A stretch of DNA of 64,000 bases from an uncultured Bacteroidota bacterium (GTDB lineage: Bacteria > Bacteroidota > Bacteroidia > Bacteroidales > DTGW01): positions 24,355 to 88,354 of the forward strand of contig CAWKPE010000019.1 in NCBI GenBank assembly GCA_963851385.1, written 5' to 3'. The notes beneath the pieces were generated by a model. That model had not been told where the DNA came from. It saw only the letters and a program-made list of their open reading frames with translations, and did no database searches. The translations under genes and the position numbers were made by a program. Below, in pieces: positions 4,065-64,000 of this stretch; the first letter of the stretch is position 1; each line of letters starts with the position of its first letter.

Positions 4065-5339
4065 ATGAAAAAGATTCTTTTTATTTTGGCAATAATGGTA
4101 ATTTTCTTTAGCGTAGCTAAGGCTCAACTTTCCATGAATTCTTCTGGTCTTATTGGTATAGGTAGTTCTGCAACAAATTCAGCTTCCAGTTTAGCCATAA
4201 ACACAAATGGTTCTGGCAATAATGCTGTATCAATAGTACCATTAGCAACTCAAAATGTTGGAATAAGTTATAGTAATAGCAGTGTGCATCTATCGACCGT
4301 CTTTGGAATAGTAAGTTCTCAAGACAATACGGGATACAGTAATATTCTACGCTCAGTTTATAGCGTTGCATGTAGTTCAACTGCACAAAGTTGTGGACAG
4401 GCTTATGCAATACATGGAATAGCCGGGAATAACACAAATGGTTATAATATAGGAATATATGGTCAGTTACAGGGTTCTAATAACGGTGCTGCTGTTTATG
4501 GTCAAGCTGGTACAGCTTCAGCATTCCCATTAGATAATATGTATGCCGGCTATTTTTATGGCAATGTAAAAATTACTGGATCAATCTGGGCCCAGAGTGG
4601 CACTATAACAGGTTCTGATCAAAAATTAAAAAAGAATATTGTAGTCCTTGATTCCACTGATAAAATTTTTAATCTTAAGCCTGTAAAATATTATCTGAAA
4701 AGCCCTCGTGAATTAGCAAGTACTGTTTCGAAATCAGATACATCAAAAACACCAGTTTCATTTTTACCCGATCCAGATTATACAAAAAAATTACATTATG
4801 GCTTTTTGGCTCAAGATATGCAACAGGTTTGCCCTGATTTAGTCTATACAAGTGGTGATGGTACTCTTGGCATTGACTATCAAGGCTTAATACCATTAAT
4901 TATAGATCAATTAAAGAAAATGAAGCAATCTTTACAAGATAAAGATGCACGAATTGATTCACTTGAGCAAAGGTTAAATAATTGTTGTGGTTCATCAAGC
5001 CTAAAAAGTGCAAAGGCCACCTCGATGAATGACACAGCAATTATTTCCAAAAGCAATTCCAGTGTATTCCTAAATGGTACCGCTACCCTCAGTCAAAACG
5101 CTCCTAATCCGTTCAGTAAAAGCACGAATATTGGTTATTATTTGCCAGAATCTGTTCAAAATGCTACATTATATATTTATAACATGAACGGTGTTCAAAT
5201 CAAATCCATCCCAGTAACATCAAAAGGGAACGGAAACATAACTATTAACGGGTACGAACTTGGCCCCGGCATGTATTTATATACTCTCATTGCCGATGGT
5301 CAGGAAGTGGCCACCAAACGAATGATTTTAACCCAATAA
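4065..5339 (+). CDS. tail-fibre-like protein with a peptidase S74 intramolecular-chaperone domain and a T9SS C-terminal sorting domain
   Basis: Signal peptide and a Gly/Ser/Asn-rich N-terminal half. The S74-type segment is SDQKLKKNI...HYGFLAQDMQQVCPDLV...IDYQGLIPLIIDQLKKM plus a coiled coil. The last ~80 aa (SQNAPNPFSKSTNIGYYLP...GMYLYTLIADGQEVATKRMIL) are a typical T9SS type-A CTD. Confidence 0.7.
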   Translation: MKKILFILAIMVIFFSVAKAQLSMNSSGLIGIGSSATNSASSLAINTNGSGNNAVSIVPLATQNVGISYSNSSVHLSTVFGIVSSQDNTGYSNILRSVYSVACSSTAQSCGQAYAIHGIAGNNTNGYNIGIYGQLQGSNNGAAVYGQAGTASAFPLDNMYAGYFYGNVKITGSIWAQSGTITGSDQKLKKNIVVLDSTDKIFNLKPVKYYLKSPRELASTVSKSDTSKTPVSFLPDPDYTKKLHYGFLAQDMQQVCPDLVYTSGDGTLGIDYQGLIPLIIDQLKKMKQSLQDKDARIDSLEQRLNNCCGSSSLKSAKATSMNDTAIISKSNSSVFLNGTATLSQNAPNPFSKSTNIGYYLPESVQNATLYIYNMNGVQIKSIPVTSKGNGNITINGYELGPGMYLYTLIADGQEVATKRMILTQ

Positions 5340-15074: not shown

Positions 15075-16213
15075 ATGAGAAGCTCTTAATTATATTTTTA
15101 TAATTGCATTATTAGCTCAAGCATGTAAAAACCTTATGATGATCCCCCCGTTCAGGCAGTCATATCAAGTTTGGTCGTTGAATGCACAATAACTACTGAT
15201 CCTCCACCCTATGCAGTAAAGTTGACTACTTCGATTGCTTATAATTCCACCAGCTATCCTAAAAAAGTATCAAATGCAAAGATCAGTATTTTAGATGATG
15301 CAGGAAATATTGAAAATGTAATTGAGAAACCTTCCGGTTCCGGAAACTATAGACATCTGTTACTGGGATGCAGGGACAAATTGGCAAAAGTTACAAATTA
15401 AAAATAGCATTAACTGATAGCAAAGGTAAAATATACAGCACTTATGAATCTGATTGGGTTAGAATAAATGAACCTCCGCAAATAGATTCACTTTATGCCG
15501 AAACAGGGCAGTTGCAATCTTTAATGCAGAATTCTGACGGAAGTTACTATATAGCCACCAGGTTGGGAATAAATGTGTACATGGATGCCAGTCCGCCAGC
15601 TAAACAGGATTATTATTATATGTTCAATTCATCAATGATACTAGAATACACGCAAACTTATTATCCCGATACCATAGCAGGTAGGTATACAAAGCTACCT
15701 ATTTTACCAGAAGTCCTTTATGGCTGGTATAGCAGTGAAATATATGTTGCTAATGATTTAATAGAAGGTTCGTCCCAATATCCTTCACCAATTAAAAAAC
15801 ATTTTATTGGATTTATACCCGAATTTTTCTCAACTGTAACGGATACTTTTCATGATGAACCCATATCTGCAGGAGATGTTACTACAACAACAATATATTC
15901 AGTATCAAATAAAATATATCAAATTTTCACGGAAGAAAATACTCAAACACAACCAGTGAATTCTATTTTTGATCCTATTCCTACACAACTCACATCAAAT
16001 ATTAAATGCACCAGTGATACTACAAAAAGTGTATTTGGGTATTTTAATGCAGCTTCAGTAATTCGCGGGTATCACTATTTTTTGTGGGTACATGGCTTTG
16101 ATAAAATCTATTCTTATAAGGTTGATTCTTTGCCACCAGGCATAACTGACTCTGGATTGGATACCGCCGCAGCTCCAAGCTTTTGGTTTTATGATAACGG
16201 GAAATACAAGTGA
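15075..16213 (+). pseudogene. DUF4249-like lipoprotein, frameshifted
   Basis: ATG at 15075 sits right after the receptor stop. The signal and lipobox region is broken by stops (MRSS*). The body is split between ORFs 15171-15401 and 15368-16213. Position and layout match the intact DUF4249 gene at 52824-53672. Confidence 0.65.
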
Positions 16214-37650: not shown

Positions 37651-37789
37651 TTTCATAGAAAATAAAAATGAGTATTAACAGAAAGCATACTTCCTCAGTT
37701 AAAAGGTCCACAAAGAGTGTGACTCGGGAGGGTATTTGCTATTTGTTTGTGAAAATTTGATATGAAAAATAAATACACAAAATAGTTTG

Positions 37790-37820
37790 GCCCTCCGAAT
37801 TTCGGGGGGCTTTTTGTTTT
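37790..37820 (+). terminator. rho-independent terminator
   Basis: GCCCTCCG / CGGGGGGC forms an 8-bp GC-rich stem with one G-U pair and a 5-nt loop. It is followed by TTTTTGTTTT. Confidence 0.7.
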
Positions 37821-37839
37821 ATATATAATTTAAAAACTT

Positions 37840-38580
37840 ATGATTACTTCAATAGAAATTAAAAAGATGGCCTTGCGCAATGGTGCTGACCTGTGCGGTA
37901 TTGCCCCGGTGGAGCGTTTTGAACACGCACCTGTAGGATTTCATCCTACCGACATTTATCCTGGAACAAAATCTGTAATAGTTATTGCAAAACAGGAAAT
38001 TGAAAGTACTTTGTACTCCAAATCAGCTGTAGCATATACATTTGCTACCGAAATGATCTTGAATGAAGTGTTCAGGATAACTATTGAAATAGCTGAAAAA
38101 TTAGAGCAGAAAGGCGTAATCGCAATTCCTGTTCCTTCCGAGCCATATGAATACTGGGATGAAAAAGAACTGACCGGGAAAGGAATTCTCTCATTAAAAC
38201 ATGCTGCTCATTTATCCGGTTTAGGCGTTATCGGTAAAAACACATTGCTTATAAATAAAAAATATGGCAATTTGATCAGATTGGGAGCCATACTAACTGA
38301 TGCAAAACTTGAAGGTGACTGCATAGATGATTCTGTACTTTGCAAAGACACTTGTAATCTTTGTTTGAAGAGCTGTCCGGTTAACGCTATAAATGGGAAT
38401 ATTGTAATTCAAAAGAAATGCAGACCTAATTCCGGAATTACTAATAAAAAAGGATATTCGCTCTATATTTGCAACACTTGTCGGAAGGTTTGTCCTTACA
38501 GAGCCGGCGGCATTGTGAATAATAATAATGACCCGATCAAATTGAAAACTCTTATTCAAATTAAACATTTAATGAAATAA
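37840..38580 (+). CDS. 4Fe-4S ferredoxin-domain protein, epoxyqueuosine-reductase / reductive-dehalogenase-like
   Basis: 246 aa with two cluster motifs, CKDTCNLCLKSCP and CNTCRKVCP. The N-terminal part resembles the QueG-type fold (GADLCGIAPVERF). Specific function is uncertain. Confidence 0.6.
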   Translation: MITSIEIKKMALRNGADLCGIAPVERFEHAPVGFHPTDIYPGTKSVIVIAKQEIESTLYSKSAVAYTFATEMILNEVFRITIEIAEKLEQKGVIAIPVPSEPYEYWDEKELTGKGILSLKHAAHLSGLGVIGKNTLLINKKYGNLIRLGAILTDAKLEGDCIDDSVLCKDTCNLCLKSCPVNAINGNIVIQKKCRPNSGITNKKGYSLYICNTCRKVCPYRAGGIVNNNNDPIKLKTLIQIKHLMK

Positions 38581-38602
38581 TTGAACTGAGTTTATGTAGT
38601 CT

Positions 38603-41034
38603 TTATTTCTTTTTTAAATAAAGATAGTCGAGATAGTAAATTACTTTAACTGAAAAACTATTGGTTTGAGGAGAATTAATAATATTCTCAAAATTTTTAA
38701 AATATGAATATGTTATTATATTATCGTCCCTTTCAATTATGTTTTTCCAGACAACATACAGTTCGCTTCCGGGTGCAAAACGCCATGAATATATCATATC
38801 AATATTAAATGCGTTATAACATTTGTTATTATTGTCAGAATAATTGCTTTTTTTTAATGTTCCGTCATTATTCAACTCATAATATTGATTATCATAGACT
38901 GCATTTTGATTATAGTGTCTTAAACGAAAGCTGAGATAAGAGTTACAACTAAAAATATATTTTGTAGTAAACGTATTTGTAATAGTTCTCACGTTACGTT
39001 TACCAAAATAAATTGTGTCTTCATGAACACTTGTATTGACCCATCCTTTTAATTTATGAATATAGTCATAATCTAATTCATAGGAAAATGAAAGTTTATC
39101 CGTTACGCGATAATATATCCATTGATTAAACCAGTATTCAAAAAGTTCGGGATCATCAGTCCATTTTCTTCCCGGGTTAAACATTAAAGATATTTTTTCC
39201 CTTGGGTCTGTATTTATCCAACCTCCAAAATGATATAATTTGTTAAAAGGAATAACGTACCTGCCTTTTACCCTGGGTTCATAATAATCTTTGTCACCAT
39301 CAGGGTAATAAGTTGCATTTATACCTGCTGAATATTGATTGCTGAATGTAGCATCAGAATGAAAAAACAAATTTGTAGATGTATATACAGAAGGGTTGTA
39401 CATACTATTATAATACATATCTAAATATGTAAACCAATACAAAATTTTCCAAAAAGGCTTTGTTACTTCGTACCTGATAAAAAGTTCAGTAGATTTATAA
39501 TTGTTTTTCTCCAAATATCCCAAATCGTTTATATCATACTTATCCGATAATAAAAGATAAGAAAGATAACCCTGGAATTTGCCGGCTATTCTTCCAGCTT
39601 TTAGATAATATGAATGACCGAATTCAGAATTTGCTAGTATCCCTGTGTTTTTGACTTATATACTCCCCTGGTTTGTATCCCATAGGTTTTTGTTTTGTTT
39701 TTAAGTAACCAGTTCGCTTCCTGTAACATTTGCCATATAACCGTCCTTTTCCATCCAGGAGTTGTATTGGTAAGATTTATATAAGAATTGTTTTTTAGCT
39801 CTTGATCTAAAACAATCAGGTTATAATTGGTGAACGGTTGTGTTTCAAATTTTCTTTCTACACCGTTAGAATCAGCAATAGTAGCATATGTGCTCCCCGT
39901 TATCGCATTGAAAAAACCAATTCCTAATCCTGTATTTGTTCTCCCTGATATTTTTGTTGCATTAATTATACGGGTTGTTAAGGGGTTTGAAATAATTGTA
40001 TCGCCGTTTTTTAAATAATTAACTACGCTATCGTGTCTGTATGGTGTTCCACCGATTCTCCTGGAGTAAAATAGACCCAGTTTGTTGAACAATTCCGTTC
40101 CTTCAGTAAAAAAGGGTCTCTTTTCACCATAATATGTTTCATATGGAGAAAGATTCAAAATTCTATCATCGGATTGAACCTGGCCAAAATCAGGAATCAT
40201 GGTCATATCGAGTGTAAAACTTTCGTTTATTCCATATTTAAGATCCAAACCTCCATTGAATGTGGAACCCCATTTTTTATAATCAGGATTCTTTTCAACA
40301 TACTCCGAAATATAGGGCATCAAAGAAAGCCGTAAGGGAGGTTTAATATTTTCAACACCCATCATCTTACCTGATTGGTTTAGAATACCATCTTTTTGCC
40401 TGTCTACAAAAACCCAGTTGGTGTTTTGCCGATGCCGCATTATATTTCTCCAGATGTTTATTTTCCAATTTTGTACATCGGTTCTGGGAAATCGAAGAGC
40501 AGTGAAAGGAATTTTAATTTCAGCTATCCAACCACTGTCTGTTATACTTACACAACTTTGCCACACTGCATCCCAACTCGCATCCTCATTATAATGATCG
40601 ACTTTCACATCATATTGCACACCTGAAGCTGTAACAAAGAAACCAAATCCATTCATTCCGGTTCCAGATGGATCAAAATAAATGCCCATATAATCGGCAT
40701 TGTAAATATTGTCTCTTTCACTTAATTCTGTTAAAATACTGTCTGGTGCTGAATCGTATAACATAGCACCTATATATAAAGCTGTATTATCATATAAAAA
40801 TTTAATTTCCGATTTTTGCCAGGCAGGAGCTCCGTTATTTGGAGAAAATTGAACAAAATCTTTAGCAACGGGAACATTTTTCCAGGCTTCATCATTCAGC
40901 TTTCCATCAATAATAGGCGGATTATCTGTCCTCACTACCTTGATAGTTTTAGTGCTATCTTGGGCTACCAGTGACATTGAATTCATCATTAATAAAATTA
41001 ATTCACTGCAAAAAAATATGAGGTTTCTGGTCAT
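38603..41034 (-). pseudogene. CBM9-like / DUF5916 outer-membrane-associated protein, frameshifted
   Basis: The N-terminal ORF (39634-41106; likely start MTRNLIFF at 41034) has DGKLNDEAWKN...F.QFSPNNG. The C-terminal ORF is 38603-39523. Between about 39,620 and 39,780 the reading frame must change at least three times to keep a sensible protein (NSWMEKDGYMANVTGSELVT / KNKTKTYGIQTRG / VKNTGILANSEFGHSYYLKAGR). Confidence 0.7.
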
Positions 41035-41412
41035 ACCGTTATTCTGTACAAATATGTAACGTAAATGAATATTTAATTTAAAGAAATTTCTATTTTTGAA
41101 ATGCAACGTATTAAGGTTGACTAAGGACTTAAAAAATAAACTTAAAAATACGAATATATAAAATTTGTCTGCTTTATTGCTATTATAGAAACTAGTTTTA
41201 CGGCAGCTTTAAAAATAAATTTTAAGTACTATTAATATTCAATTTCAATGCAAAATGCTGAATTTATAAAACAGATAGATTATAACATTACAAAATGTAC
41301 AATTTAATGCAATAACTATTTTGTTTAAGTCTACCTTAAATATTAAATGTATCATAAATTAACATCAGTTCTATGTAAGAAAATATTTAAATGCTTTGTT
41401 TTAAACACTTTT

Positions 41413-55006: not shown

Positions 55007-55608
55007 TTTATTTTATTTTAAGTTAATTAAAAGCAGACATATTATAATACAAATTTCTATACAAAAATTCTTATTCATTAAATGATAACTTAAAAAATCA
55101 ATAAATAATAAGATAAATAATCTCTAACTGCGGGGACAAACTACATCCAGTTTTTCTTTCACCAAATTCAAAAGAAGCTTATCAACTATTCTAAAAATAG
55201 ATACGATATCGTAAAAATTCTTTCATAGTTATCTTCTATTAGCATTAATAATATTAAATTTTTGACATAATATATTGCAAAAAAGCAAATAGCTTATCAA
55301 AGTTAAAAAATATATTTCATACAAACATATAAGTTTAATAAACTAATCAGAAATAAAAATAAAGATTTGAATATAAGCCAGATAAAAAATATATTTGAGA
55401 CATATATCAGCTCAAAACAAAAATATTTTACAAAACCAAGTATTGAATAGATAAAATTTGTGATTTAAAATCAAATCATTTTGATTTGGTTCATCATAAC
55501 TATTACGAATTACAGAACTATCCCTAAATTGATAATGAAAAACTTAATTACCCAAATTTTTATTTGTTTTAAATAAAAAATGTGTGATATATTGTTTGAT
55601 GAAAAAAC

Positions 55609-55642
55609 TTAACCCTTGTAAAATTTAATTTACAAGGGTTAA
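55609..55642. other. perfect 14-bp inverted repeat (hairpin) at the presumed island edge
   Basis: TTAACCCTTGTAAA - ATTTAA - TTTACAAGGGTTAA. On the minus strand the hairpin is followed by GTTTTTTC, so it is terminator-like. Confidence 0.6.
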
Positions 55643-55715
55643 TGATTTTAATAGTAGCCCGTAGGGTATTACTTTTTTCATTTCATTCAATTTTATCTAA
55701 TTCTAATGTGACATT

Positions 55716-55748
55716 ATGAAGCCTAATAAATAGGCTTCATTTGTTTAC
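55716..55748 (+). terminator. terminator-like hairpin upstream of the integrase
   Basis: ATGAAGCCTA / TAGGCTTCAT forms a 10-bp stem with a 5-nt loop, followed by TTGTTT. No upstream plus-strand gene lies within 700 nt, so its role is unclear. Confidence 0.4.
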
Positions 55749-55794
55749 TAAAGGTATAATAAATATTATTACATTTCATTAGATTTAATCAAAT

Positions 55795-55827
55795 AGTGTA
55801 CGTAAATTTACCAAAAATACGTACACT
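55795..55827 (+). promoter_or_regulatory. 10-bp inverted repeat abutting the integrase start codon, enclosing a near-consensus -7 box
   Basis: AGTGTACGTA (55795-55804) and TACGTACACT (55818-55827) flank a 13-nt spacer. TAAATTTA at 55803-55810 resembles TAnnTTTG. ATG is at 55828. Confidence 0.5.
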
Positions 55828-57054
55828 ATGAGTTTGAAAATTAACTTCTATCTTGAAAGCAGACAGGGCAATGCTAAAAACTTGCCTATTAATATGCTGG
55901 TCTGGTTTGACGGTTACCGATTAAAATACTATACTGGTTATAGAATTGATTTAAAAAAATGGGATAAAGAAGACCAGGAAGTAAAAAAGAACAATCTTAA
56001 TGAGAATGGACAAACTGCATCGTTCCTCAACCAAAAATTAACAAATCTAAAAAATGAAGCCGCTAAGGTTTATAATGATTACGATGCACTTAAAAAATCT
56101 TTGACTATTGAAAATTTTCGAAATGAGTTAAAAGCCGTTGACAATAAGAATATCAAAAAGGTTAATGAAAAAAGTATTAACCATTGTTTTGAAATTTATA
56201 AATCACAAATAGCAGTCAGTTATGGGACACTAAAAATGATAAATGTTTTATTTAACCACTTTCAAACTTTCTTAAAAACCAATAAAGATATTAACGATAT
56301 TACCCATGAAACTTTAGTTTTATTTGAGAATTATTTAAGTGCAAGCAAAAATAAAGGGCATAACACAATAGTAAGTAATATGAAGCGCTTAAGGGCTTTC
56401 TTCAAGTTTGCTGAACGAAAAGAATGGATTAAAATCAACCCGTTTAAAAAATATAAAGTAGAATCTGAGAAGTATGGGAGACCAATTGCATTAACGAAAA
56501 ACGAGCTTGAACTACTTTATAATAAAGATATATCTGACAATCCCAAACTTGACAAAACAAGGGACATTTTTATTTTTCAGTGCTGCATTGGATGCAGAGT
56601 ATCAGATTTGATGCGATTGACCAAAGCAAATATTATTAACGGTTTTATTCAATATATACCTACCAAGACAAAAGAAGAAAGCCCAAACTCAGTGAGTGTC
56701 CCAATTAATGACAAGGCTAAGCAAATATTAAATAAATATTCAGGTAGTGATACTATTTTGCCTTTTATTAATGATGTTAAATATAACCTCTTTATAAAAG
56801 AACTATTTAATCATTGTGAATTAACAAGGCAAGTGATAAGATTAAACCCTTTGACAGGGATAGAAGAAAGCAAATCACTTGCTGACATAGCATCTTCACA
56901 TCTTGCCAGAAGAACATTTATCAGTATCTTGCATAAAAAAGTAAAAGATTCCATTATTGCAAGTATGACAGGCCATAAAAAAGATAGCAAAGCATTTTCT
57001 CGTTACTATGACATTGAAGACGAACAAAAAACCGAAATAATTAATTTGATTTAA
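55828..57054 (+). CDS. site-specific tyrosine recombinase (Bacteroidetes-type phage integrase)
   Basis: 408 aa. The N-terminal arm-binding-like region reads INFYLESRQG...YYTGYRIDLKKWD. Catalytic-domain residues are GCRVSDL (Arg), HLARRTF (H-x-x-R), MTGH and FSRYY (Tyr nucleophile). Confidence 0.9.
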   Translation: MSLKINFYLESRQGNAKNLPINMLVWFDGYRLKYYTGYRIDLKKWDKEDQEVKKNNLNENGQTASFLNQKLTNLKNEAAKVYNDYDALKKSLTIENFRNELKAVDNKNIKKVNEKSINHCFEIYKSQIAVSYGTLKMINVLFNHFQTFLKTNKDINDITHETLVLFENYLSASKNKGHNTIVSNMKRLRAFFKFAERKEWIKINPFKKYKVESEKYGRPIALTKNELELLYNKDISDNPKLDKTRDIFIFQCCIGCRVSDLMRLTKANIINGFIQYIPTKTKEESPNSVSVPINDKAKQILNKYSGSDTILPFINDVKYNLFIKELFNHCELTRQVIRLNPLTGIEESKSLADIASSHLARRTFISILHKKVKDSIIASMTGHKKDSKAFSRYYDIEDEQKTEIINLI

Positions 57055-57060
57055 TATACA

Positions 57061-58278
57061 ATGGAAATTGATATTGAAGAATTAAAAGAAAAGTTCGTAT
57101 TATATGTTTTTTGTCAAAGTACATATTCATATTTTGATAAAAAAAATGATTTTCAAATTGATTTGCAATATAAACCTGACAAAGTAAATTTTATAGAAAA
57201 AAAAGCAATTGAAATTGGAGAATTACTCTCTAATAGCGAATCAACAATTTATAAAGAAACATTCTCAATTAAACTTATACGTACGCATCTTTCAAACATT
57301 AAAGGTCAAAGTGAAATACGAAATTTGCATACACCTTTAATTGATACACTTCATTATCACATTTCTGATGGTTTACATAGAAGTAAATTAAAAGAATACT
57401 CCCTAAAATATAGTATTGAAGAAAATTTTGGATTCGATAAATTAGGCTCTGTTTTAATAGAATTTCTATCAAATCAAATGTTTTACGTTTACCTCACTGA
57501 TGATTTAAACAGAAATGATCGGCCTCTTAATACAATATTTAATGAAAATACTATAAACAAAAATAATTGGATTAGCTTTTTTGAGAGTATTGATATTAAA
57601 AAAGAACCTCAATTAGAACCAAAAATTTGGCGGGGCGAAATTGGGGAAACCTATGTTCAAAATTGCTATACAACTTCACTTATTCAGCATTTGTATGAGC
57701 TAAAAAAGAAAATTGGATATTTAAGAGATAGTTCCAAATTAACTTATCTCATTCAATTAAATTTGCCTTTGCCACAAATGCCAAACTTTGACCATGAAGC
57801 TGTAAATCAAGGTTTTTATGAGTGTGATATGCACTACTATGAGTTTATTAATGATTATATAGAATATTTAAAACAGAAAATTAATTTAGCTAATTCAACA
57901 CAATTTCATAAAAATGAAGATGCTAACAATAAGAAAAATACACACAAAAAGAAACATATTACTTTTGAAAATTATTCCATTAAACATGAATACATAAAGC
58001 TATTTTTTCAATCATTAAAGAATGAGAACCTATTTGATGAGGATAATATATTTAAAGGGAAGTTTAATGATATAAAGGACGAAATACATACTATTATTAA
58101 AGTGCTAACTGACAAGAAATATTTAACTGAGGCACCAAATTCAAATAATTATCTATTTGCCACTGCACTTGGTATTAAATCAAATATAAATGATAAAACA
58201 ATACGTAAAACCAATTGGACAGCGAAGAATGAAAGGTATTTGTACTATTCCCAAATAATACCAAATCTAATTAAATAA
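57061..58278 (+). CDS. hypothetical protein (ORFan to my eye)
   Basis: 405-aa uninterrupted ORF starting 7 nt after the integrase stop. I recognise no motif. Confidence 0.6.
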   Translation: MEIDIEELKEKFVLYVFCQSTYSYFDKKNDFQIDLQYKPDKVNFIEKKAIEIGELLSNSESTIYKETFSIKLIRTHLSNIKGQSEIRNLHTPLIDTLHYHISDGLHRSKLKEYSLKYSIEENFGFDKLGSVLIEFLSNQMFYVYLTDDLNRNDRPLNTIFNENTINKNNWISFFESIDIKKEPQLEPKIWRGEIGETYVQNCYTTSLIQHLYELKKKIGYLRDSSKLTYLIQLNLPLPQMPNFDHEAVNQGFYECDMHYYEFINDYIEYLKQKINLANSTQFHKNEDANNKKNTHKKKHITFENYSIKHEYIKLFFQSLKNENLFDEDNIFKGKFNDIKDEIHTIIKVLTDKKYLTEAPNSNNYLFATALGIKSNINDKTIRKTNWTAKNERYLYYSQIIPNLIK

Positions 58279-58379
58279 TCTACCAATTTACCAAAAGTTA
58301 CCATATGGTAATTAATGGTAAGTAATTATAATACAATACATTAAAATATATTTTCCTTTGCATAACAAATTAAATATTT

Positions 58380-58667
58380 ATGCAAATGGAACTTATTATT
58401 ACAACCCCTGAGAATTTAAAAATTGAAGTTGAGGCAGCGGTATCTCGTGCGCTTGCAAATCAAGCACCTCAACAACAAACCAAAGTACCACAAAAAGAGT
58501 TTGCTTACAGCATTAAAGAAGGTGCTGACTTTTTCCAATGTTCACCTGTAACATTTCAATCGTGGAAAAATTCCGGCTTTGTGAAATATACGCAACATGG
58601 CCGGAAATTAATAATTGATTTACCGGGTACATTGGAACTTTTGAATACTAAAAAAAAGAAAGTTTAA
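58380..58667 (+). CDS. AlpA/excisionase-type helix-turn-helix protein
   Basis: 95 aa. The HTH_17-like segment reads YSIKEGADFFQCSPVTFQSWKNSGFVKYTQHGRKLIIDLPGTLELL. Confidence 0.7.
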   Translation: MQMELIITTPENLKIEVEAAVSRALANQAPQQQTKVPQKEFAYSIKEGADFFQCSPVTFQSWKNSGFVKYTQHGRKLIIDLPGTLELLNTKKKKV

Positions 58668-58718
58668 AATTCTTTTTATGGTAAGTGTATTATATATTAA
58701 TGCAATCAGAGTTTTGAA

Positions 58719-60218
58719 ATGATAACCAAGTTGAATCATAGTGATGATTTACGCTTTTCAAGAAAATTCCTGTTGGAAAAATATTTTGAAAAACCTGCCA
58801 ATACCTTATTGCCGAAAATTCCACAAAAGACTATAATACAAAAAGTTACTAAGTCAAATAAAAAAACATATATTCAACAAATTCCAGAAAAAGTAAATGA
58901 TATATTTCCTGAAATAGTTGAACTATTGAAAGCAGAAATTGAAGGATTCACTGAAGAAAAATTAAGAGAAGTTATATCAATTGTTGCTTGTCATGTTCGT
59001 AGGGATAAAGACAATAATAATATCGAAACACCAATAAAAGCTGAATATATTAGAAAGTATGTGCCACGTGGTGACAAATATTTAAAGGGACTTATTGATT
59101 TAGGAATTATTCAGCGTTCCGGGAACTACAAAATAAATGTGATATGTTATAAATACTGTTTTGCTCCACAATATGTAAGTAAATATATATCGTTCCCCAT
59201 TAAAGATATGCACTTAATACGTAGATTAGAAAATGCTCAGCTTACTTTTAAAAAGAAAGCTGCTAAATCAGTAAGGAATCACTCAGAACAAACAATATAT
59301 CTGAATCAGCTAACAATTCAAGATAGTTTTATAGATTTTATAGAATCTCATTTTAAAGAAAATATAGATAAATATAATTATGCAATTGGATCAGCAAATA
59401 GGATTTGGAACGGTGATATTTTTTATTCAGTAGATAATACTTCAGGACGCTTTCATAGTAACATCACCAATATGCCAAAAGAATTACGACAATTTTTAAG
59501 AATAAAGAATGAACCGTTAGTAAACATAGACATTAAAAATTCACAGCCGTATCTTTCGACAATTATACTGACAAATCCAAGTAAAGTGTCATGGCTTACT
59601 CAAAATCCCGATTTTCAACAATTATTGCAAACTCTGAAGGTATCCCAAAATGAAGATGTCAAGAAATATATTTCCCTGGTTGTTATGGGTGAAATCTATG
59701 AATTTTTAAAAACTGAATTTTTGAAAAATAACATAATCCTTACCAGAGATGAGACCAAAAAACAAGTGTTAAGAATACTGTTTGCAAAAAACAGGATGCC
59801 AAAGGATGAAACAAATAAAAAATGTAGGCAAACTTTTATTGATAATTTTAAAACGGTTCATAAAATATTTTCCAAAGTTCGAGGTAAGGGGAAGGGCAAT
59901 AAATATCGAAACTACAAAAGATTCGCAATTTTATTGCAGCGAATCGAAAGTTATTTAATGTTAGATATTATTCTAAAACGGATTTATAAAGAATTGCCAG
60001 GCACTATTGCGGTAACAGTGCACGATAGCATAATGACAGGAATATTGACAAATAATGTTGAAGCTATAAAAAAAATAATGGAAGAAGAATTAACCTTTTT
60101 TGTCGGTTTTTCACCAAAAATTAAGATTGAAGAAAGAATTAAAGAAAAAAGGGAGAAAGAAAGAAAGGAAAAAGAGATAATGCAATACGGTGCCGGAACT
60201 TTTGTATGTGTCAATTAA
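58719..60218 (+). CDS. family-A (Pol I / T7-like) polymerase-domain protein with no exonuclease domain; putative island replicase
   Basis: By-eye motif alignment to E. coli Pol I. Residues 242-253 SGRFHSNITNMP match TGRLSS..PNLQNIP. LRQFL matches IRQAF. Residues 269-279 NIDIKNSQPYL match ADYSQIELR (motif A, Asp271 = nt 59529-31). Residues 315-329 KKYISLVVMGEIYEF match K..NFGLIYG (motif B). Residues 432-438 VTVHDSI match QVHDE (motif C, Asp436 = nt 60024-26). Confidence 0.6.
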   Translation: MITKLNHSDDLRFSRKFLLEKYFEKPANTLLPKIPQKTIIQKVTKSNKKTYIQQIPEKVNDIFPEIVELLKAEIEGFTEEKLREVISIVACHVRRDKDNNNIETPIKAEYIRKYVPRGDKYLKGLIDLGIIQRSGNYKINVICYKYCFAPQYVSKYISFPIKDMHLIRRLENAQLTFKKKAAKSVRNHSEQTIYLNQLTIQDSFIDFIESHFKENIDKYNYAIGSANRIWNGDIFYSVDNTSGRFHSNITNMPKELRQFLRIKNEPLVNIDIKNSQPYLSTIILTNPSKVSWLTQNPDFQQLLQTLKVSQNEDVKKYISLVVMGEIYEFLKTEFLKNNIILTRDETKKQVLRILFAKNRMPKDETNKKCRQTFIDNFKTVHKIFSKVRGKGKGNKYRNYKRFAILLQRIESYLMLDIILKRIYKELPGTIAVTVHDSIMTGILTNNVEAIKKIMEEELTFFVGFSPKIKIEERIKEKREKERKEKEIMQYGAGTFVCVN

Positions 60219-60312
60219 TCAATAAAATATTAATACTTACTAAATGAAAATAAAAACAAGAATTGCCGGGCTTATCTAGAATAGAATAGTAAATGAAACG
60301 TATTTTACAGTT

Positions 60313-60531
60313 TGTACGCACGTGTGAAGATATTCTAAAATAGAATGTTTTAGAAAGAGTTTTCTTACACTATAAAAATGGTCGAAAAAAGAATTACTGG
60401 ACTTTCTTGAGTAGAATTATTAGACAGATACGCGCGCGCGAAGGAATATTGAAGTTTTTTACAGTCCATAAAAAGGGCTTATGTAAAATAGAACAATTTA
60501 GAACTAAAATTGCGCTCTTACACTATAAAAA
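60313..60531 (+). repeat. two imperfect direct repeats (GC-rich TACGCRCG head, then TAAAATAGAA, TTTAGAA and CTTACACTATAAAAA)
   Basis: Unit A is 60315-60378. Unit B is 60429-60531 and equals unit A plus an insertion of about 35 nt. The CTTACACTATAAAAA box is identical at 60364-60378 and 60517-60531. A third GC-rich head, TACGCGCGTGAGAT, lies at 61903-61916. Confidence 0.65.
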
Positions 60532-60540
60532 AGAGTAGAT

Positions 60541-60816
60541 ATGTCAAGAAGAAAACTAGGAGATAGAAAAAAAGGCACAACAGACCAAGTAACCAGAGAC
60601 ATCAAAGAAGCATATAGTTTACTTATAGAAAATAATCTTAATAATATGGAAATTTGGTTAAATAAACTTGCATCTAAAGACCCAGGGAAAGCATTTAAGC
60701 TAATAATTAAGTTATCAAAATATATAATCCCTAAACTTAGCCGAAGTAATTTTGATTTAAAAGCAACGGAACATGAAAATAAAATTATTAAAGTCACCTA
60801 TGAAGATTTAAATTAA
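60541..60816 (+). CDS. small basic protein, phage-like (resembles the N-terminal regions of some small terminase / packaging proteins; unverified)
   Basis: 91 aa: RRKLGDRKKGTTDQVTRDIKEAYSLLIENNLNNMEIWLNKLASKDPGKAFKLIIKLSKYIIPKL. The pattern is familiar from phage small ORFs, recalled from memory only. Confidence 0.45.
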   Translation: MSRRKLGDRKKGTTDQVTRDIKEAYSLLIENNLNNMEIWLNKLASKDPGKAFKLIIKLSKYIIPKLSRSNFDLKATEHENKIIKVTYEDLN

Positions 60817-61036
60817 GAATTGTCCGAGTGTGAAAAATAAACTTTTGTTTTTAGTAAATAGAATTTAAGTGAATAATTGATTTTAACATTAATAAGAAAT
60901 ATGGCATTTACAAATTAGACAATATGTTAAGTTTATAACAAGTTCTTTCAATAGCATTACAAAGCAATAATATAAAGGCATTGAGGCCAATTTATAGAGT
61001 AAATGTAAAATTTAATCCCTAAAGATTTAGGTTATT

Positions 61037-61124
61037 AAAAAATGTACAAGAAACATTAGTTTTCACATGAAAATGCACAAGAATTTCACAAAAAACGCAA
61101 AATAAATGCAACAAAATTTCAAAA
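61037..61124 (+). repeat. three iteron-like direct repeats AAATGYACAAGAA...TTTCACA
   Basis: AAATG starts at 61040, 61071 and 61104, with spacings of 31 and 33 nt. Each repeat is followed by TTTCACA or TTTCAAA. Further TTTCA copies lie at 61138 and 61151. Confidence 0.55.
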
Positions 61125-61214
61125 TAAATTCTAAAAATTTTCAAAAGAGTTTTCAGTGTATTAACAGTATAAATACAGTATGAATTCCAAAAAATTGCAA
61201 CGTAAATTCAACTT

Positions 61215-61829
61215 ATGGGTAGACACACGACCGGAGCATTATCAACAAATGAAATATATAGGATTGAATTAAGTTTTTTAATAAAAAGAAAATTTATTCA
61301 AAAAGACCGAAACAATTCATTTAATCTGACTTGGTCTCCAGGTAGTAATAATATTTCTGTAATTAGTAATTATTTTTCATATGATATTTGGATAAGACTA
61401 GTTTATACTATTACTGATTATGAGGGTAAAAAATATGAATATGATTATAAAATTTATTTAGTTGAAAGACCCAGTAATTTAGGGATTGGAAACGTTTTAT
61501 ACTTTATTTGTCCTGATTCAGGTAAATTGTGTAGAGTTTTATATAGATGTTATGGCTCGCATATTTGGAAATCAAGAGAAGCATATAGAAATAGAATTTA
61601 TTATTCCAGTCAAATTTCCTCAAAACTGAATTACTTCAATGATAGATACTGGCAAATAGAAAGAACTTTAGAGAAGTTGAGGCAAGAAAGGAAAAGTTAT
61701 TATTATAAGAATTCTAAGACAAAAAGATTAAAGAGAATTGAAAGATTGGAGTGGCAAAAAATAAAGTTCGACAATTTAAGATGGAATGTGTTTGGTAAAA
61801 GTCTAGGACATCATTTCGGTGCTTTATAA
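61215..61829 (+). CDS. conserved-looking hypothetical protein
   Basis: 204 aa. The segment FNLTWSPGSNNISV...IRLVYTI...VLYFICPDSGKLCRVLY...YYSSQ recalls a widespread uncharacterised family with an F.CP....C.R...LY core. I cannot name the family. Confidence 0.55.
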   Translation: MGRHTTGALSTNEIYRIELSFLIKRKFIQKDRNNSFNLTWSPGSNNISVISNYFSYDIWIRLVYTITDYEGKKYEYDYKIYLVERPSNLGIGNVLYFICPDSGKLCRVLYRCYGSHIWKSREAYRNRIYYSSQISSKLNYFNDRYWQIERTLEKLRQERKSYYYKNSKTKRLKRIERLEWQKIKFDNLRWNVFGKSLGHHFGAL

Positions 61830-62179
61830 TTCTAAATCAGAAGGGAACAAGATAATAATTTCATTAATGAAGTGATCTATAACAAAGCGTATTCGTATAT
61901 CATACGCGCGTGAGATAAAATTATTATAATTCTAGATAACGTTTATGTAAAAATTAATTTATAAATTGCTTGTTAAATAATGATTTAAGTTTTAAAATTA
62001 AATTTATTCAATCTTAATCTATACTGCTATAACCGTAATACAGGAACGATTAATATTTATCTATAAGAAACTTATGGACAAGTTAAAAACGGTGTATCAA
62101 ATAATCATTATCGTACTATCAATGAGTTTAATAAATAATTGCGGAATGTCTGAAATGTTTTTAATTTATAATTAAATCT

Positions 62180-63337
62180 ATGCCTAATCCTCAAAATGAC
62201 AATTTAAACACTGAAGCAGACGATAAATCTTCTCTTCTTGCCTATGAAACAAGAGGTGCCAGAGAAGCGGCAAAATTTTATCCTGACTTTTTACAATATA
62301 AAGACAGAGCAAGAATCGTTTGCAATGAACATACACAAATAAGCCAGCAAGCTAAACAGAAAAAGATTGAAGGAGTTGAAAATGACATTGAGCAACAAAG
62401 ACAGATAATAGAAAGTAAAAAACTAGAGGTTCAGAAAATAGAATCAGAAAAAAATAAACACCAACTAGAATTAGCAGGCTTAAATATTGCACCGAGTAAA
62501 GCACCTCTTTTTATTGTTGGTAGTATAGTAATTTTTTTAGGAACTGCCCTGTTTCTTTTTTATGGACTTACATTGTCCAGTGTAATTGGAACACTTGTTA
62601 AATCAACAAGTGATCAGCTGCAAGGTCAGCAAATACAAGCTGCTATTCCAACATTATGGGACAACTTTTTAAAACTTCCTATTTTTCTTAAAATCATTTC
62701 TATTTTATTATCTGTTCTTCCGCTTGGTATTGGCTATTTGTTACAAGAATACAAGCAAAAAAAACAATGGCTTGGCTTTATTATAATTATACTATTCGTT
62801 TTTGTTCTTGATGTTGTAATTGCATTTGTTGTTGAAAAACAAATATACACTCAGGAATCATTAATAACCGAAATGAAACCATTTAGTCAATATATTAATG
62901 ATAGTATTTTAGGTTCATTTGGAGCAATAATATTGCTTGGGTTCGGTGCTTATTTAGTTTGGGGCATGTTGCTTGACTCTTTTTTAGAAAAATTAAATCC
63001 GCAAATTCATAAAACAAGAGTTGAACAGAAAATTAAATCTTTTGATTTATCAATTTCTATTTTAAAAAATGAAATTCAAAATATAGAAGCAACAATTACT
63101 GAATTTAAAAATAAAATAAAAGATTTGCTAGAATCTCAGATACGTTTATTAGACAAAGAAGCAGAAAAGGAATTGCAAAAGAATTTAAGTAACTATACTT
63201 CTGGATGGGAAAAATATATTATAATATATCATGGAAATGATAAACAAATGACTAAAGCTAAAATTGAGGAACTTTTTTCAAAAAAAAATGAAGTAATTAA
63301 GGAATTTAATGAAACCTTTGAAACAATAAAACAATGA
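62180..63337 (+). CDS. four-TM membrane protein flanked by coiled coils
   Basis: 385 aa. The N-terminal heptad-like region reads KQKKIEGVENDIEQQRQIIESKKLEVQKIESEKNKHQLEL. Four hydrophobic helices lie at roughly residues 108-135, 165-190, 197-218 and 243-265. The C-terminal coiled coil reads ILKNEIQNIEATITEFKNKIKDLLESQIRLLDKEAEKELQ. Confidence 0.65.
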   Translation: MPNPQNDNLNTEADDKSSLLAYETRGAREAAKFYPDFLQYKDRARIVCNEHTQISQQAKQKKIEGVENDIEQQRQIIESKKLEVQKIESEKNKHQLELAGLNIAPSKAPLFIVGSIVIFLGTALFLFYGLTLSSVIGTLVKSTSDQLQGQQIQAAIPTLWDNFLKLPIFLKIISILLSVLPLGIGYLLQEYKQKKQWLGFIIIILFVFVLDVVIAFVVEKQIYTQESLITEMKPFSQYINDSILGSFGAIILLGFGAYLVWGMLLDSFLEKLNPQIHKTRVEQKIKSFDLSISILKNEIQNIEATITEFKNKIKDLLESQIRLLDKEAEKELQKNLSNYTSGWEKYIIIYHGNDKQMTKAKIEELFSKKNEVIKEFNETFETIKQ

Positions 63338-64000
63338 AAATAATAACAGATTTTCACAGACAATATATAATTTATTTAAGTATTTATCTTATATCATCTT
63401 TTCTTTTATTTTCTTGTGTTACAGACACAAATGAATATTCAAAACGAGGAGGAGCATCTAATTTAGTCATTCCATATAATATTACAATCCTTATAGACCT
63501 TTCTGACAGAAATCTTTCTAATAATTATCCTCAACTTACAACTGATATACCTGTGAAGCATGACACAACAGCAATAAGAATTATTTTATCTGTCCTTAAA
63601 GAAACTTTTCGTTCATTGACAATAAAAGATAAATTAAACATTGAACCTGTTCATCAAGACAATTCAAATTACGACCAATATTATTCAGATAATTACGAGA
63701 AATTAAAAATTGATATGGAAAAAATTTTTCAAGAGTTGAAAAGTCAGGGAAAACCATGTCTCTCAATACCAGTAAGGAAAAAAGAATTTGACAAGCGTTG
63801 TAATACTTTAATAAAAAGTACTAGCGAATTAGAAAATATTGCCTTACAAAATCAAAATCCTTCAGGTGGTGATGTTACTAAATTTTTAAAAGAAAAACTT
63901 AAATACTATTTCAGACAAGATTATAAGAATGTTCTAGTTATACTTACTGACGGGGATGAAGCATTTAATAGCGATATTCAAAAGAGTAGAACAAAAATAG
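63334..64000 (+). CDS. lipoprotein with a vWA-like fold (partial; runs off the window)
   Basis: It is not in the ORF track because it has no stop in the window. The ATG at 63334 overlaps the upstream stop (ATGA). Lipobox FLLFSC. Segments NITILIDLSDR, SGGDVTKFL and VLVILTDGDE sit in the order and spacing of vWA beta1 (DxSxS-like), the Thr loop and the beta4 Asp. Confidence 0.5.
   Translation, partial: MKIITDFHRQYIIYLSIYLISSFLLFSCVTDTNEYSKRGGASNLVIPYNITILIDLSDRNLSNNYPQLTTDIPVKHDTTAIRIILSVLKETFRSLTIKDKLNIEPVHQDNSNYDQYYSDNYEKLKIDMEKIFQELKSQGKPCLSIPVRKKEFDKRCNTLIKSTSELENIALQNQNPSGGDVTKFLKEKLKYYFRQDYKNVLVILTDGDEAFNSDIQKSRTKI

Follow-up and report, generated by a model that had tools for sequence, protein, structure and literature searches.

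In SCCmec and other islands of Bacillota, the CcPol-MP(SSB)-Cch2 system combines a truncated DNA polymerase I (PolA) with a partner of the oligonucleotide/oligosaccharide-binding (OB) fold, and the two together act as a primase (Bebel et al. 2020, PMC7581432; Rice 2023, PMC10061031). Rice (2023, PMC10061031) found such pairs in Bacillota only, where they lie on serine-recombinase islands that carry restriction-modification (R-M) genes as cargo. Here we describe an island in a 64,000-nucleotide stretch of DNA (the window) from an uncultured Bacteroidota bacterium (contig CAWKPE010000019.1 of assembly GCA_963851385.1, positions 24,355 to 88,354 of the forward strand), in which a PolA-like protein is encoded downstream of a tyrosine integrase and a small helix-turn-helix (HTH) protein. 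We read the locus as an integrative, replicative island with a PolA-derived initiator; the island and its PolA-like module are well supported, an identity as a phage satellite is a hypothesis, and the protein family concerned was previously unannotated and is without a Pfam or NCBIfam model. Weighing all of the evidence below, we think it probable, if by no means assured, that a Bacteroidales-like host carries a site-specific, self-replicating mobile island of a predicted ~13 kb, inserted in a tRNA-Glu gene at the 3' end, and that the region covers its left ~8.3 kb.

The open reading frame (ORF) listing placed eight co-directional plus-strand genes between 55828 and the window end. A preliminary description of this DNA had reported the order int, uncharacterised ORF, AlpA-type HTH gene, replication protein and cargo, and we found all of these features present and co-directional on the plus strand. 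The genes on which most of the argument turns are as follows:

55828-57054, plus strand: int, a 408-aa tyrosine integrase that has an arm-binding N-terminus and belongs to the IntN1/IntDOT-like type of Bacteroidota
57061-58278, plus strand: ORF2, an orphan protein of 405 aa
58380-58667, plus strand: HTH gene, 95 aa, DUF3853/HTH_17 (MerR/AlpA/excisionase-like)
58719-60218, plus strand: PolA-like gene (called a "replicase candidate" in the preliminary description), 499 aa

A predicted, divergent family-A polymerase

The 499-aa protein gave no match in Pfam, NCBIfam or among PDB sequences, and no helicase or primase domain was recognised in it. Its AlphaFold2 (AF2) model, built from 36 sequences (pLDDT 79.7, pTM 0.75), consists of a disordered tail (residues 1-46) and a winged-helix-like domain (~50-160) followed by thumb, palm and fingers, with no exonuclease domain. 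When this model was compared with the PDB by Foldseek, the top 17 matches were family-A DNA polymerases and mitochondrial RNA polymerases (probability 1.0 for the best, falling to ~0.4; E-values from 5e-4), the first four being T7 DNA polymerase (DNAP), Pol theta, KlenTaq and M. smegmatis Pol1, with Pol gamma and POLRMT also in the list. Among the viral models of BFVD, ~400-aa phage proteins matched with E-values of 8e-21 and 2e-17 (TM 0.6-0.72); one BFVD match was named 'putative DNA polymerase I' and further phage DNA polymerases followed below. The N-terminal ~110 residues had weak Foldseek matches to MarR/HxlR-type regulators, which suggest that this domain is a winged helix.

Six collinear PolA motifs, including both catalytic aspartates (D271 and D436), are conserved in the protein. 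The correspondences below come from an alignment to E. coli Pol I, T7 DNAP and T7 RNA polymerase (RNAP) that was made with hhalign and partly by eye; the window protein is given first and E. coli Pol I second:

TSGRFHS: TGRLSS
D271-IKNSQPYL: D705-YSQIELR
GEIYE: GKDIH (DIH-like motif)
R343-DETK347…F355: R754-RSAK758…Y766 (O-helix)
R401-FAILLQ407: R841-AAINAPMQ849 (R..Q 'motif 6')
H435-D436-S: H881-D882-E (motif C)

In the family alignment R244, R257, D271, N274, Q276, G324, Y327, K347, L406, Q407, E410 and D436 were invariant down to 23% identity, and R343, F355, H435 and S437 nearly so. A glutamine occupies the steric-gate position, the R..Q minor-groove motif is present, and motif C reads HDS, like that of T7 RNAP, rather than HDE. 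Because of the steric-gate glutamine and the R..Q motif, the sequence leans towards DNA rather than RNA synthesis, with the HDS motif pointing the other way. The modelled fold and the active-site motifs show the PolA-like protein to be, as predicted from its structure, a very divergent and minimal branch of the family-A polymerases, and we infer that the enzyme would polymerise DNA and prime.

The HDS motif and the presence of POLRMT among the fold matches also suit a different account, in which the protein is not a replicase and would be a promoter-specific single-subunit RNAP for the island genes, or a nucleic-acid-synthesising effector of defence or anti-defence, on an island that is not autonomous; defence cargo is abundant on these islands. 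We consider this decidedly improbable, since the protein belongs to the conserved Int-HTH core and not to the variable cargo, has no PADLOC match, and conserves the steric-gate glutamine along with an R..LLQ motif specific to Pol I and T7 DNAP.

Exchange of the probable replication module

That the 499-aa protein has a role in replication is argued chiefly from what occupies the same slot in related islands. We used L084, a metagenome contig carrying a sister element, as a proxy for the unseen downstream part of the window island. It matches the window at 94% identity over 55652-57918 and at 92% over 61914-64000, and between these conserved arms lies an exchanged module, with its left break at 57918 (inside ORF2) and its right break at ~61914, where blastn homology resumes. 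In L084 this module encodes a 96-aa HTH protein and a 370-aa rolling-circle initiator of the Rep_1 family with intact HUH (NPHFHLIV) and tyrosine (VKYGTK) motifs; in the window it instead encodes the HTH protein, the 499-aa PolA-like protein and proteins of 91 and 204 aa. Islands with integrases 50-55% identical to that of the window keep the order integrase, variable ORF, DUF3853/HTH_17 and end at a tRNA gene. Of these cousins, L107 has an AAA_25 protein and a BT4734_N/PriCT_1 primase in the slot after the HTH gene, and others have DUF6291 or uncharacterised proteins there. The slot proteins of L104 (434 aa) and L106 (419 aa) were checked and are not PolA-like.

The comparison shows the position after the HTH gene to be a cassette-like slot whose content is interchangeable with known replication initiators, and since that slot holds textbook replication initiators in at least two islands, the 499-aa protein probably serves replication as well. 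The same finding tells against the RNAP or effector account, in that the sister and the cousin have a rolling-circle initiator or a primase-helicase at this position. The preliminary description had stated that a PolA-like protein here fills the place of a primase-helicase, and both the fold search with the six PolA motifs and the swapping of the slot with Rep_1 and with AAA_25 plus PriCT bear this out.

Since the exchange starts inside ORF2, the last ~100 aa of that protein differ between the sister islands, which suggests that the ORF2 C-terminus co-varies with the replication module. At the other end, the exchanged module stops at a short palindrome with a third copy of TACGCGCGTG (TACGCRCGYG, 61903-61912); the GC-rich word possibly marks a site of recombination or binding.

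Boundaries and mobility of the island

The features that define the left end are:

55652-55666, plus strand: attL core TAGTAGCCCGTAGGG, 15 bp, duplicating the final ~13 nt of tRNA-Glu(UUC), with 2-3 nt more
55796-55804 (plus strand) and 55818-55826 (minus strand): two inverted GTGTACGTA copies, just 5' of the int start codon

Position 55652 is the true left boundary of the island, because it is exactly at TAGTAGCCCGTAGGG that the window, L084 and L104 become homologous, and the left flanks are unrelated. The core was found once in the 64 kb (0.01 expected). In L084 the matching 16-mer stands at 4207 and again, in direct orientation, at 15490, where it overlaps the 3' end of a tRNA-Glu gene (15493-15567, minus strand), and in L104, whose integrase is 84% identical, the left boundary is shared with one mismatch next to a third, unrelated left flank. 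The preliminary description had proposed a direct-repeat search near 55,600-55,830; TAGTAGCCCGTAGGG is attL, and the sister carries the repeat at both ends. Two of the earlier statements need amending on this account: the island starts at 55652 and not at 55609, and the att sites are not all beyond the window, as attL sits at 55652-55666. The right end does lie outside, as had been said; no tRNA gene was found anywhere in the window, so that attR is to be sought past 64000. We predict attR as CCCTACGGGCTACTA at the 3' end of a minus-strand tRNA-Glu(UUC) gene ~5-8 kb past 64000, and the attP junction as …AACTAC|TTAGTAGCCCGTAGGG|TATTAC….

The GTGTACGTA 9-mer has only two copies in the 64 kb (0.10 expected). 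In L084 there are four, all at the element ends (0.03 expected): an inverted pair precedes int, and a direct pair lies 55-75 bp inward of attR. We regard the GTGTACGTA copies as candidate arm-type integrase sites or a candidate int operator. Outside the island, 10 bp left of attL, is a hairpin (55609-55642) with a perfect 14-bp stem (TTAACCCTTGTAAA…TTTACAAGGGTTAA) and T-runs on both sides. It resembles a bidirectional terminator, belongs to the flanking DNA, and is missing from the flanks of L084 and L104.

The only backbone that the window shares with L084 (window 37677-41038, a different neighbourhood) is 77% identical. With 92-94% identity in the island against 77% in the backbone, and with three left flanks for one boundary, the island is discrete, integrative and mobile relative to the backbone. 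The element in L084 is complete at 11.3 kb and ends in tRNA-Glu, its cargo after the shared genes being a DUF4760 protein, a split Type IIG R-M enzyme and a GNAT protein. No capsid, terminase, virion, relaxase or type IV secretion system (T4SS) gene was found in it. If the window island continues like L084, its predicted total length is ~13.4 kb. The preliminary description had named a prophage, a relaxase or a T4SS downstream, or a lack of insertion polymorphism, as what would refute its reading; the downstream part of L084 has none of these genes, and three unrelated left flanks adjoin the one boundary.

That the region is conserved backbone, or a decayed prophage remnant that is now immobile, is therefore hardly credible to us. 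Excision of the window island is a prediction and its right end is outside the window, which would suit such a remnant; but a single element boundary recurs in three contexts, island identity far exceeds that of the backbone, the integrase, att core and arm sites are intact, and there are no phage structural genes.

Two interrupted genes were noted in these comparisons. The Type IIG restriction-methylase of L084 (11230-14269) is split into ORFs of 856 and 158 aa that jointly span positions 1-1013 of the 1024-position PADLOC model, so a frameshift or a phase-variable or inactivated enzyme is likely. In the backbone, one 809-aa gene of L084 (929-3358) corresponds to two minus-strand ORFs of 306 and 490 aa in the window (38603-41106). 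A frameshift, pseudogenisation or an error of sequencing, in either of the two, could account for this split.

Repeats and a candidate origin

One further feature adjoins the PolA-like gene directly:

60219-60540, no strand: repeat-bearing non-coding block, a candidate origin or regulatory region

This block contains an imperfect duplication at ~150-bp spacing, the exact 16-mer TCTTACACTATAAAAA twice (at 60363 and 60516, 153 bp apart) and AATAGAA-type words. The motif TACGCRCGYG has three copies in the 64 kb (60315, 60429 and 61903-61912; 0.02 expected), all of them within the module. Further on, a 22-bp tandem repeat at 61098-61146 is weak (Tandem Repeats Finder score 70, 2.2 copies, 85% matches), and the remaining repeats are AT-rich and at chance level. 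The region had been called repeat-rich, which we found to be only moderately true: the exact 16-mer pair, the GC-rich motif in three copies and the weak tandem stand, and the other repeats do not exceed chance. We infer an origin in or near 60219-60540. GC skew is strongly positive (0.11-0.30) over 60000-62000, a stretch of non-coding DNA and small genes, and is ~0 elsewhere in the island.

The 16-mer pair just 3' of the gene contains ACACTATA, which resembles SP6/K11-type promoters, in a layout that recalls the two promoters after T7 gene 1. It would fit a PolA-like protein acting as a promoter-specific RNAP; however, the promoter-like 16-mer was not found in relatives, and a T7-style promoter or origin for the pair is kept as a minor rival only, as the relatives have no equivalent repeat or CACTATA pair 3' of the gene. 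TACGCRCGYG was rejected as a family-wide iteron, being absent from related loci.

Other genes and non-coding DNA of the island

The remaining features of the island are:

60541-60816, plus strand: 91-aa protein, basic and helical by sequence inspection, divergent DUF5681-type
60817-61214, no strand: non-coding stretch, AT-rich, with the weak 22-bp tandem repeat at 61098-61146
61215-61829, plus strand: 204-aa protein, basic and Cys-containing, within the swapped module and absent from the sister L084
61830-62179, no strand: non-coding stretch, with the third TACGCRCGYG copy and the right breakpoint of the exchanged module (~61914)
62180-63337, plus strand: cargo gene, 385 aa, with transmembrane segments and coiled coils
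63334-64000, plus strand: cargo gene for a lipoprotein-like protein, with only the N-terminal 222 aa inside the window

The integrase matched Pfam Phage_int_SAM_5 (6e-14) and, weakly, Arm-DNA-bind_5 (8e-4), as well as the PHROG integrase family phrog_1 (3e-33) and NCBIfam models of the XerC/D-like type, and had 1,711 homologues at E<=1e-30. The 95-aa HTH protein matched DUF3853 (5.8e-7) and, weakly, HTH_17 (4.7e-3); from these matches it is presumed to be an excision or transcription regulator. Domain scans gave no firm assignment for the 405-, 499-, 91- and 204-aa proteins or the cargo proteins. ORF2 had no match in Pfam, PHROG, NCBIfam or PADLOC, a search of 5.8e9 proteins returned only ORF2 itself and its L084 copy, and its AF2 model was unusable (pLDDT 32). 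Its slot is conserved in position and not in sequence, with relatives holding a variable ORF of 170-550 aa there.

The 91-aa protein is 45% identical to the ORF directly 3' of the PolA-like gene in locus L016, and groups with family f30, members of which match Pfam DUF5681 (1e-6) and the uncharacterised PHROGs phrog_8771 and phrog_4114; the window protein itself had no match in PHROGs or GenBank phages. The preliminary description had seen in it a small phage-like basic protein; as a DUF5681-type protein without a phage homologue, it is not a recognised packaging protein. The 204-aa protein had no significant family match and no homologue in the examined loci or in GenBank phages. The 385-aa cargo protein is 92% identical to its L084 copy, its other matches being weak and of the coiled-coil type. 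The terminal ORF is 96% identical to L084 9804-10469, where the full-length protein has 293 aa and a weak VWA match (3e-3), and no relative of it was found in a search of genome contigs. Three non-coding blocks of 320-400 bp each separate island genes, and an Rfam scan gave nothing real.

A family of tRNA-associated islands

A profile search of 1.84 billion representatives with the PolA-like protein returned 4,916 clusters (at 50% identity) with E<=1e-3 and 2,862 with E<=1e-10. Hundreds of homologues of ~60% identity, with no Pfam domain, occur in metagenome-assembled genomes (MAGs) of Bacteroidales, Prolixibacteraceae and Melioribacteraceae, and the named homologues are all annotated 'hypothetical protein'. 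We compared 86 loci that carry the gene, mainly from species-representative genomes and spanning Bacteroidales, Prolixibacteraceae, Flavobacteriaceae, Chitinophagaceae, Dysgonomonas, Bacteroides, Alistipes, Riemerella and one Melioribacteraceae MAG. A tyrosine integrase was encoded within 10 kb in 75 of them. The usual order was Int-(variable ORF)-HTH_17-(HNH or VRR-NUC in some)-PolA-like-cargo, and in most related loci an HTH_17 gene (families f2 and f3, ~30 loci each) stood directly 5' of the PolA-like gene; small, apparently beta-rich ORFs follow the PolA-like gene in other loci. Cargo consisted of Type I, IIG or III R-M systems, GmrSD, or metal-efflux sets (CzcA-like, P-type ATPase, FUR, TonB receptor). 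A distant clade had the order Int-PolA-like, 90-aa protein, AAA_24 (Sak4-like), DUF3871.

Nearly all loci had a tRNA gene at one edge, in Flavobacteriaceae tRNA-Ser beside int and in Bacteroidales one of several tRNAs at the far end. In 12 of the 13 Bacteroidales-type loci tested, 13-45 nt of the tRNA 3' end were repeated just 5' of int, which delimits elements of 6.8-12.2 kb. Among the Flavobacteriaceae, loci L029, L031, L035, L038, L040, L043, L045, L062 and L082 have a conserved cargo at tRNA-Ser(TGA) after Int-HTH-PolA-like, consisting of DUF6660, a TonB-dependent receptor, FUR, DUF3703, a P-type ATPase and a CzcA-like RND pump. The set resembles a metal-resistance island common to several marine genera.

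The Melioribacteraceae locus (L007, scaffold JALNXG010000111.1) encodes a PolA-like protein 61% identical to that of the window. The scaffold is 7,032 bp long with a 123-bp exact terminal overlap, which leaves a 6,909-bp unit, and its gene content is that of an island only: Int, an ORF2-like protein, HTH, PolA-like, small ORFs and a DUF5681-type protein. This is consistent with an excised circle or a tandem array of a family member. L007 was binned in a non-Bacteroidota (Ignavibacteriota-type) MAG.

More distant homologues occur in Lak-like megaphage records and on a viral contig of 15.6 kb that also encodes a large terminase and a serine recombinase. In uncultured phages of 0.6-0.7 Mb (LR756501/03/11, LR745206 and related records) the PolA-like homologues are 24-30% identical. 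A Pinkberry virus protein labelled 'DNA methyltransferase' (L086; OP947160.1, CDS 1695-2762) matches the PolA-like palm and fingers at 26% identity (E 3e-5), and to judge by this match the label may be wrong. On a 35-kb plasmid of Hymenobacter qilianensis (L085/L087; NZ_CP060788.1, 2824-4398) a 524-aa PolA-like homologue is neighboured by a ParA-like gene and by ~2 kb without genes. The plasmid also has a separate ParA and conventional Rep pair and may be a two-replicon cointegrate.

The preliminary description had taken the gene order to be that of a phage satellite. In such a reading, of the phage-inducible chromosomal island (PICI) type or that of the minimalist PICMIs or the virion-encapsidated VEIMEs, a helper would induce excision, the PolA-like protein would amplify the element, and helper capsids would package the concatemers with no capsid-remodelling genes of the island's own. 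The 7-12-kb size of the sister and relatives, the tRNA att sites, the integrase and AlpA-type HTH together with a putative autonomous replication module, and the defence cargo would all suit a satellite, and the hypervariable ORF beside int is reminiscent of Stl-type sensors. The rolling-circle Rep of the sister makes concatemers, L007 assembles as circular or tandem, PolA-like homologues are found in phage genomes and on the 15.6-kb viral contig with its large terminase, and marine VEIMEs and PICMIs, some in Flavobacteria, show that satellites without packaging genes exist. Gene order by itself does not make the case, however. Searches with Pfam and PHROGs gave no gene for terS, cpm, ppi, rpp, a portal or a capsid in the window, the sister or the recurrent neighbour families of ~85 related loci, and no helper phage was identified. 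The virome search that had been proposed found neither the island nor close relatives in IMG/VR (left-end 21-mer, ORF2 and PolA profile), its only PolA-like proteins being 21-43% identical and on larger phage contigs; nor was there similarity to GenBank phages, in DNA or for the 91- and 204-aa proteins. On balance we regard a true satellite as possible, while leaning against it.

That the island belongs with the integrative mobilizable elements of Bacteroides such as NBU and Tn4555, and that a co-resident conjugative transposon would transfer it by way of an oriT hidden in a non-coding block, strikes us as improbable. The IntN1-type integrase at a tRNA 3' end, the DUF3853/HTH_17 protein and the BT4734/PriCT-type primases of the cousins would fit, such integrases, HTH proteins and primases being typical of Bacteroides conjugative transposons and NBU elements; so would the unexplained non-coding block with its palindrome. 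A 10-kb tRNA island of Riemerella with an IntN1-like integrase excises spontaneously (PMC6764341). Against this, searches of the window, the sister and the related loci gave no relaxase, Mob or coupling protein and no T4SS, a DNA search gave no similarity to any PLSDB plasmid, and no oriT was recognised, an oriT not being recognisable by sequence.

Proposed mechanism

For the self-replicating island that we favour, we propose that the tyrosine integrase would recombine the 15-bp tRNA-derived core and excise the island as a circle, probably helped by the GTGTACGTA arm sites and by the DUF3853/HTH_17 protein as an excision or regulatory factor. The excised circle would be copied by an island-encoded module, in which a minimal family-A polymerase is fused to a winged-helix DNA-binding domain. 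This PolA-like protein may recognise an origin in or near the repeat-bearing block adjoining its own gene and start synthesis as an initiator or, by analogy with CcPol, a primase-polymerase, after which host replication proteins would take over. The remaining genes would be cargo, which in the sister comprises membrane and VWA-like proteins and the Type IIG R-M enzyme. For cell-to-cell transfer, the packaging of replicated concatemers by a helper phage seems the most likely single route, and we put it forward tentatively.

Several points weigh against this proposal. The right end, attR and tRNA gene of the window island are extrapolated from a sister that has a different middle module. The enzymatic activity of all family members is a prediction from sequence and model. 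No sequence profile reveals the PolA relationship (phmmer and profile searches of the PDB, and Pfam on 31 members, DNA_pol_A included, gave nothing), Foldseek TM-scores to solved structures are only ~0.3, and the hhalign match to T7 DNAP is weak (E 0.047), though motif-consistent; with single sequences of Pol I and T7 RNAP, hhalign gave nothing informative. [quoted passage not shown] For the repeats nominated as the origin, relatives have no conserved counterpart 3' of the gene, and TACGCRCGYG is a post hoc pattern, defined after the sequences had been seen. The terminal overlap of L007 could be a tandem array or an assembly artefact, and the conventional Rep on the Hymenobacter plasmid means that a PolA-like protein is not necessarily sufficient for replication.

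A bolder version, which we hold to be doubtful, is that the winged-helix PolA protein represents a new class of self-sufficient initiator that would unite origin recognition and primase-polymerase activity. It would define a phylum-wide and hitherto undescribed family of minimal satellites or replicative islands in Bacteroidota, which would move defence and metal-resistance cargo between tRNA sites and be packaged as concatemers without packaging genes of their own.

To our knowledge, Bacteroidota dominate gut and marine particle communities, and their small non-conjugative islands are almost uncharacterised. The family described here is a large one of minimal family-A polymerases wired into the Int-Xis core of 7-12-kb tRNA islands with R-M, GmrSD and metal-efflux cargo. 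Should the enzyme initiate replication, it would provide a compact new polymerase scaffold, and the combination Int-HTH_17-PolA-like beside a tRNA gene would become an annotation handle for thousands of mobile defence islands. The question of PICI-like satellites in Bacteroidota can now be tested on a defined element family.

Comparison with known systems

Compared with PICIs, PICMIs (PMC10803314) and VEIMEs (10.1101/2022.07.26.501625), the island has the same succession of int, AlpA-type HTH, replication module and cargo, with att repeats, defence cargo and a size of 7-13 kb for the island family, the window's own length being predicted. PICMIs and most VEIMEs also lack capsid genes, and these gene-poor types fit better than the PICIs of Gram-negative bacteria. 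The island differs from PICIs in that a PolA-like protein replaces the primase-helicase, no strong iteron origin is adjacent and the repeats are modest, there is no terS or other packaging or redirection gene, the host phylum differs, and the island is known from sequence alone.

NBU1/NBU2 and Tn4555 are close in another respect: they share an IntN1-type integrase, a tRNA 3' end as target, small accessory ORFs that separate int from a replication or primase-like gene, and a size of ~10 kb, but have a Mob relaxase and oriT that were not found here, and a PrmN1-type primase where the window has the PolA-like protein. The Riemerella 10K island (PMC6764341) likewise has an IntN1-type integrase, a tRNA 3' end and a length of ~10 kb, and its spontaneous circles have been shown. 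We rejected this '10K GI' as an already described family member, as its 53-bp att was not in any locus examined, the Riemerella locus included.

For the PolA-like protein itself, the best structural matches are minimal PolA-type proteins of marine phages (BFVD A0A516L5C2 and A0A8D9FR19), which have ~400 aa and, as here, no exonuclease domain; they differ in being phage-borne, are 19-22% identical, and have a predicted function only. The main text of a survey of PolA subfamilies does not contain the term 'Bacteroid', and no comparable family was noted in the survey.

The closest known analogue in function would be CcPol-MP-Cch2. Both proteins have a truncated family-A catalytic domain without a working exonuclease, in the core of a small site-specific island with R-M or defence cargo. 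There is no detectable sequence relationship between CcPol and the PolA-like family, the N-terminus is winged-helix-like here and a partial exonuclease in CcPol, and no OB-fold partner, SSB or Cch2 helicase was recognised here. SCCmec uses a large serine recombinase and an rlmH or ssrA target, in contrast to the tyrosine integrase and tRNA target of the present island, and the hosts are Bacteroidota (plus one Melioribacteraceae MAG) rather than Bacillota. The start of replication has been shown for CcPol and is predicted here; if the PolA-like enzyme does initiate replication, the CcPol paradigm of PolA as a primase of mobile genetic elements would reach beyond Bacillota.

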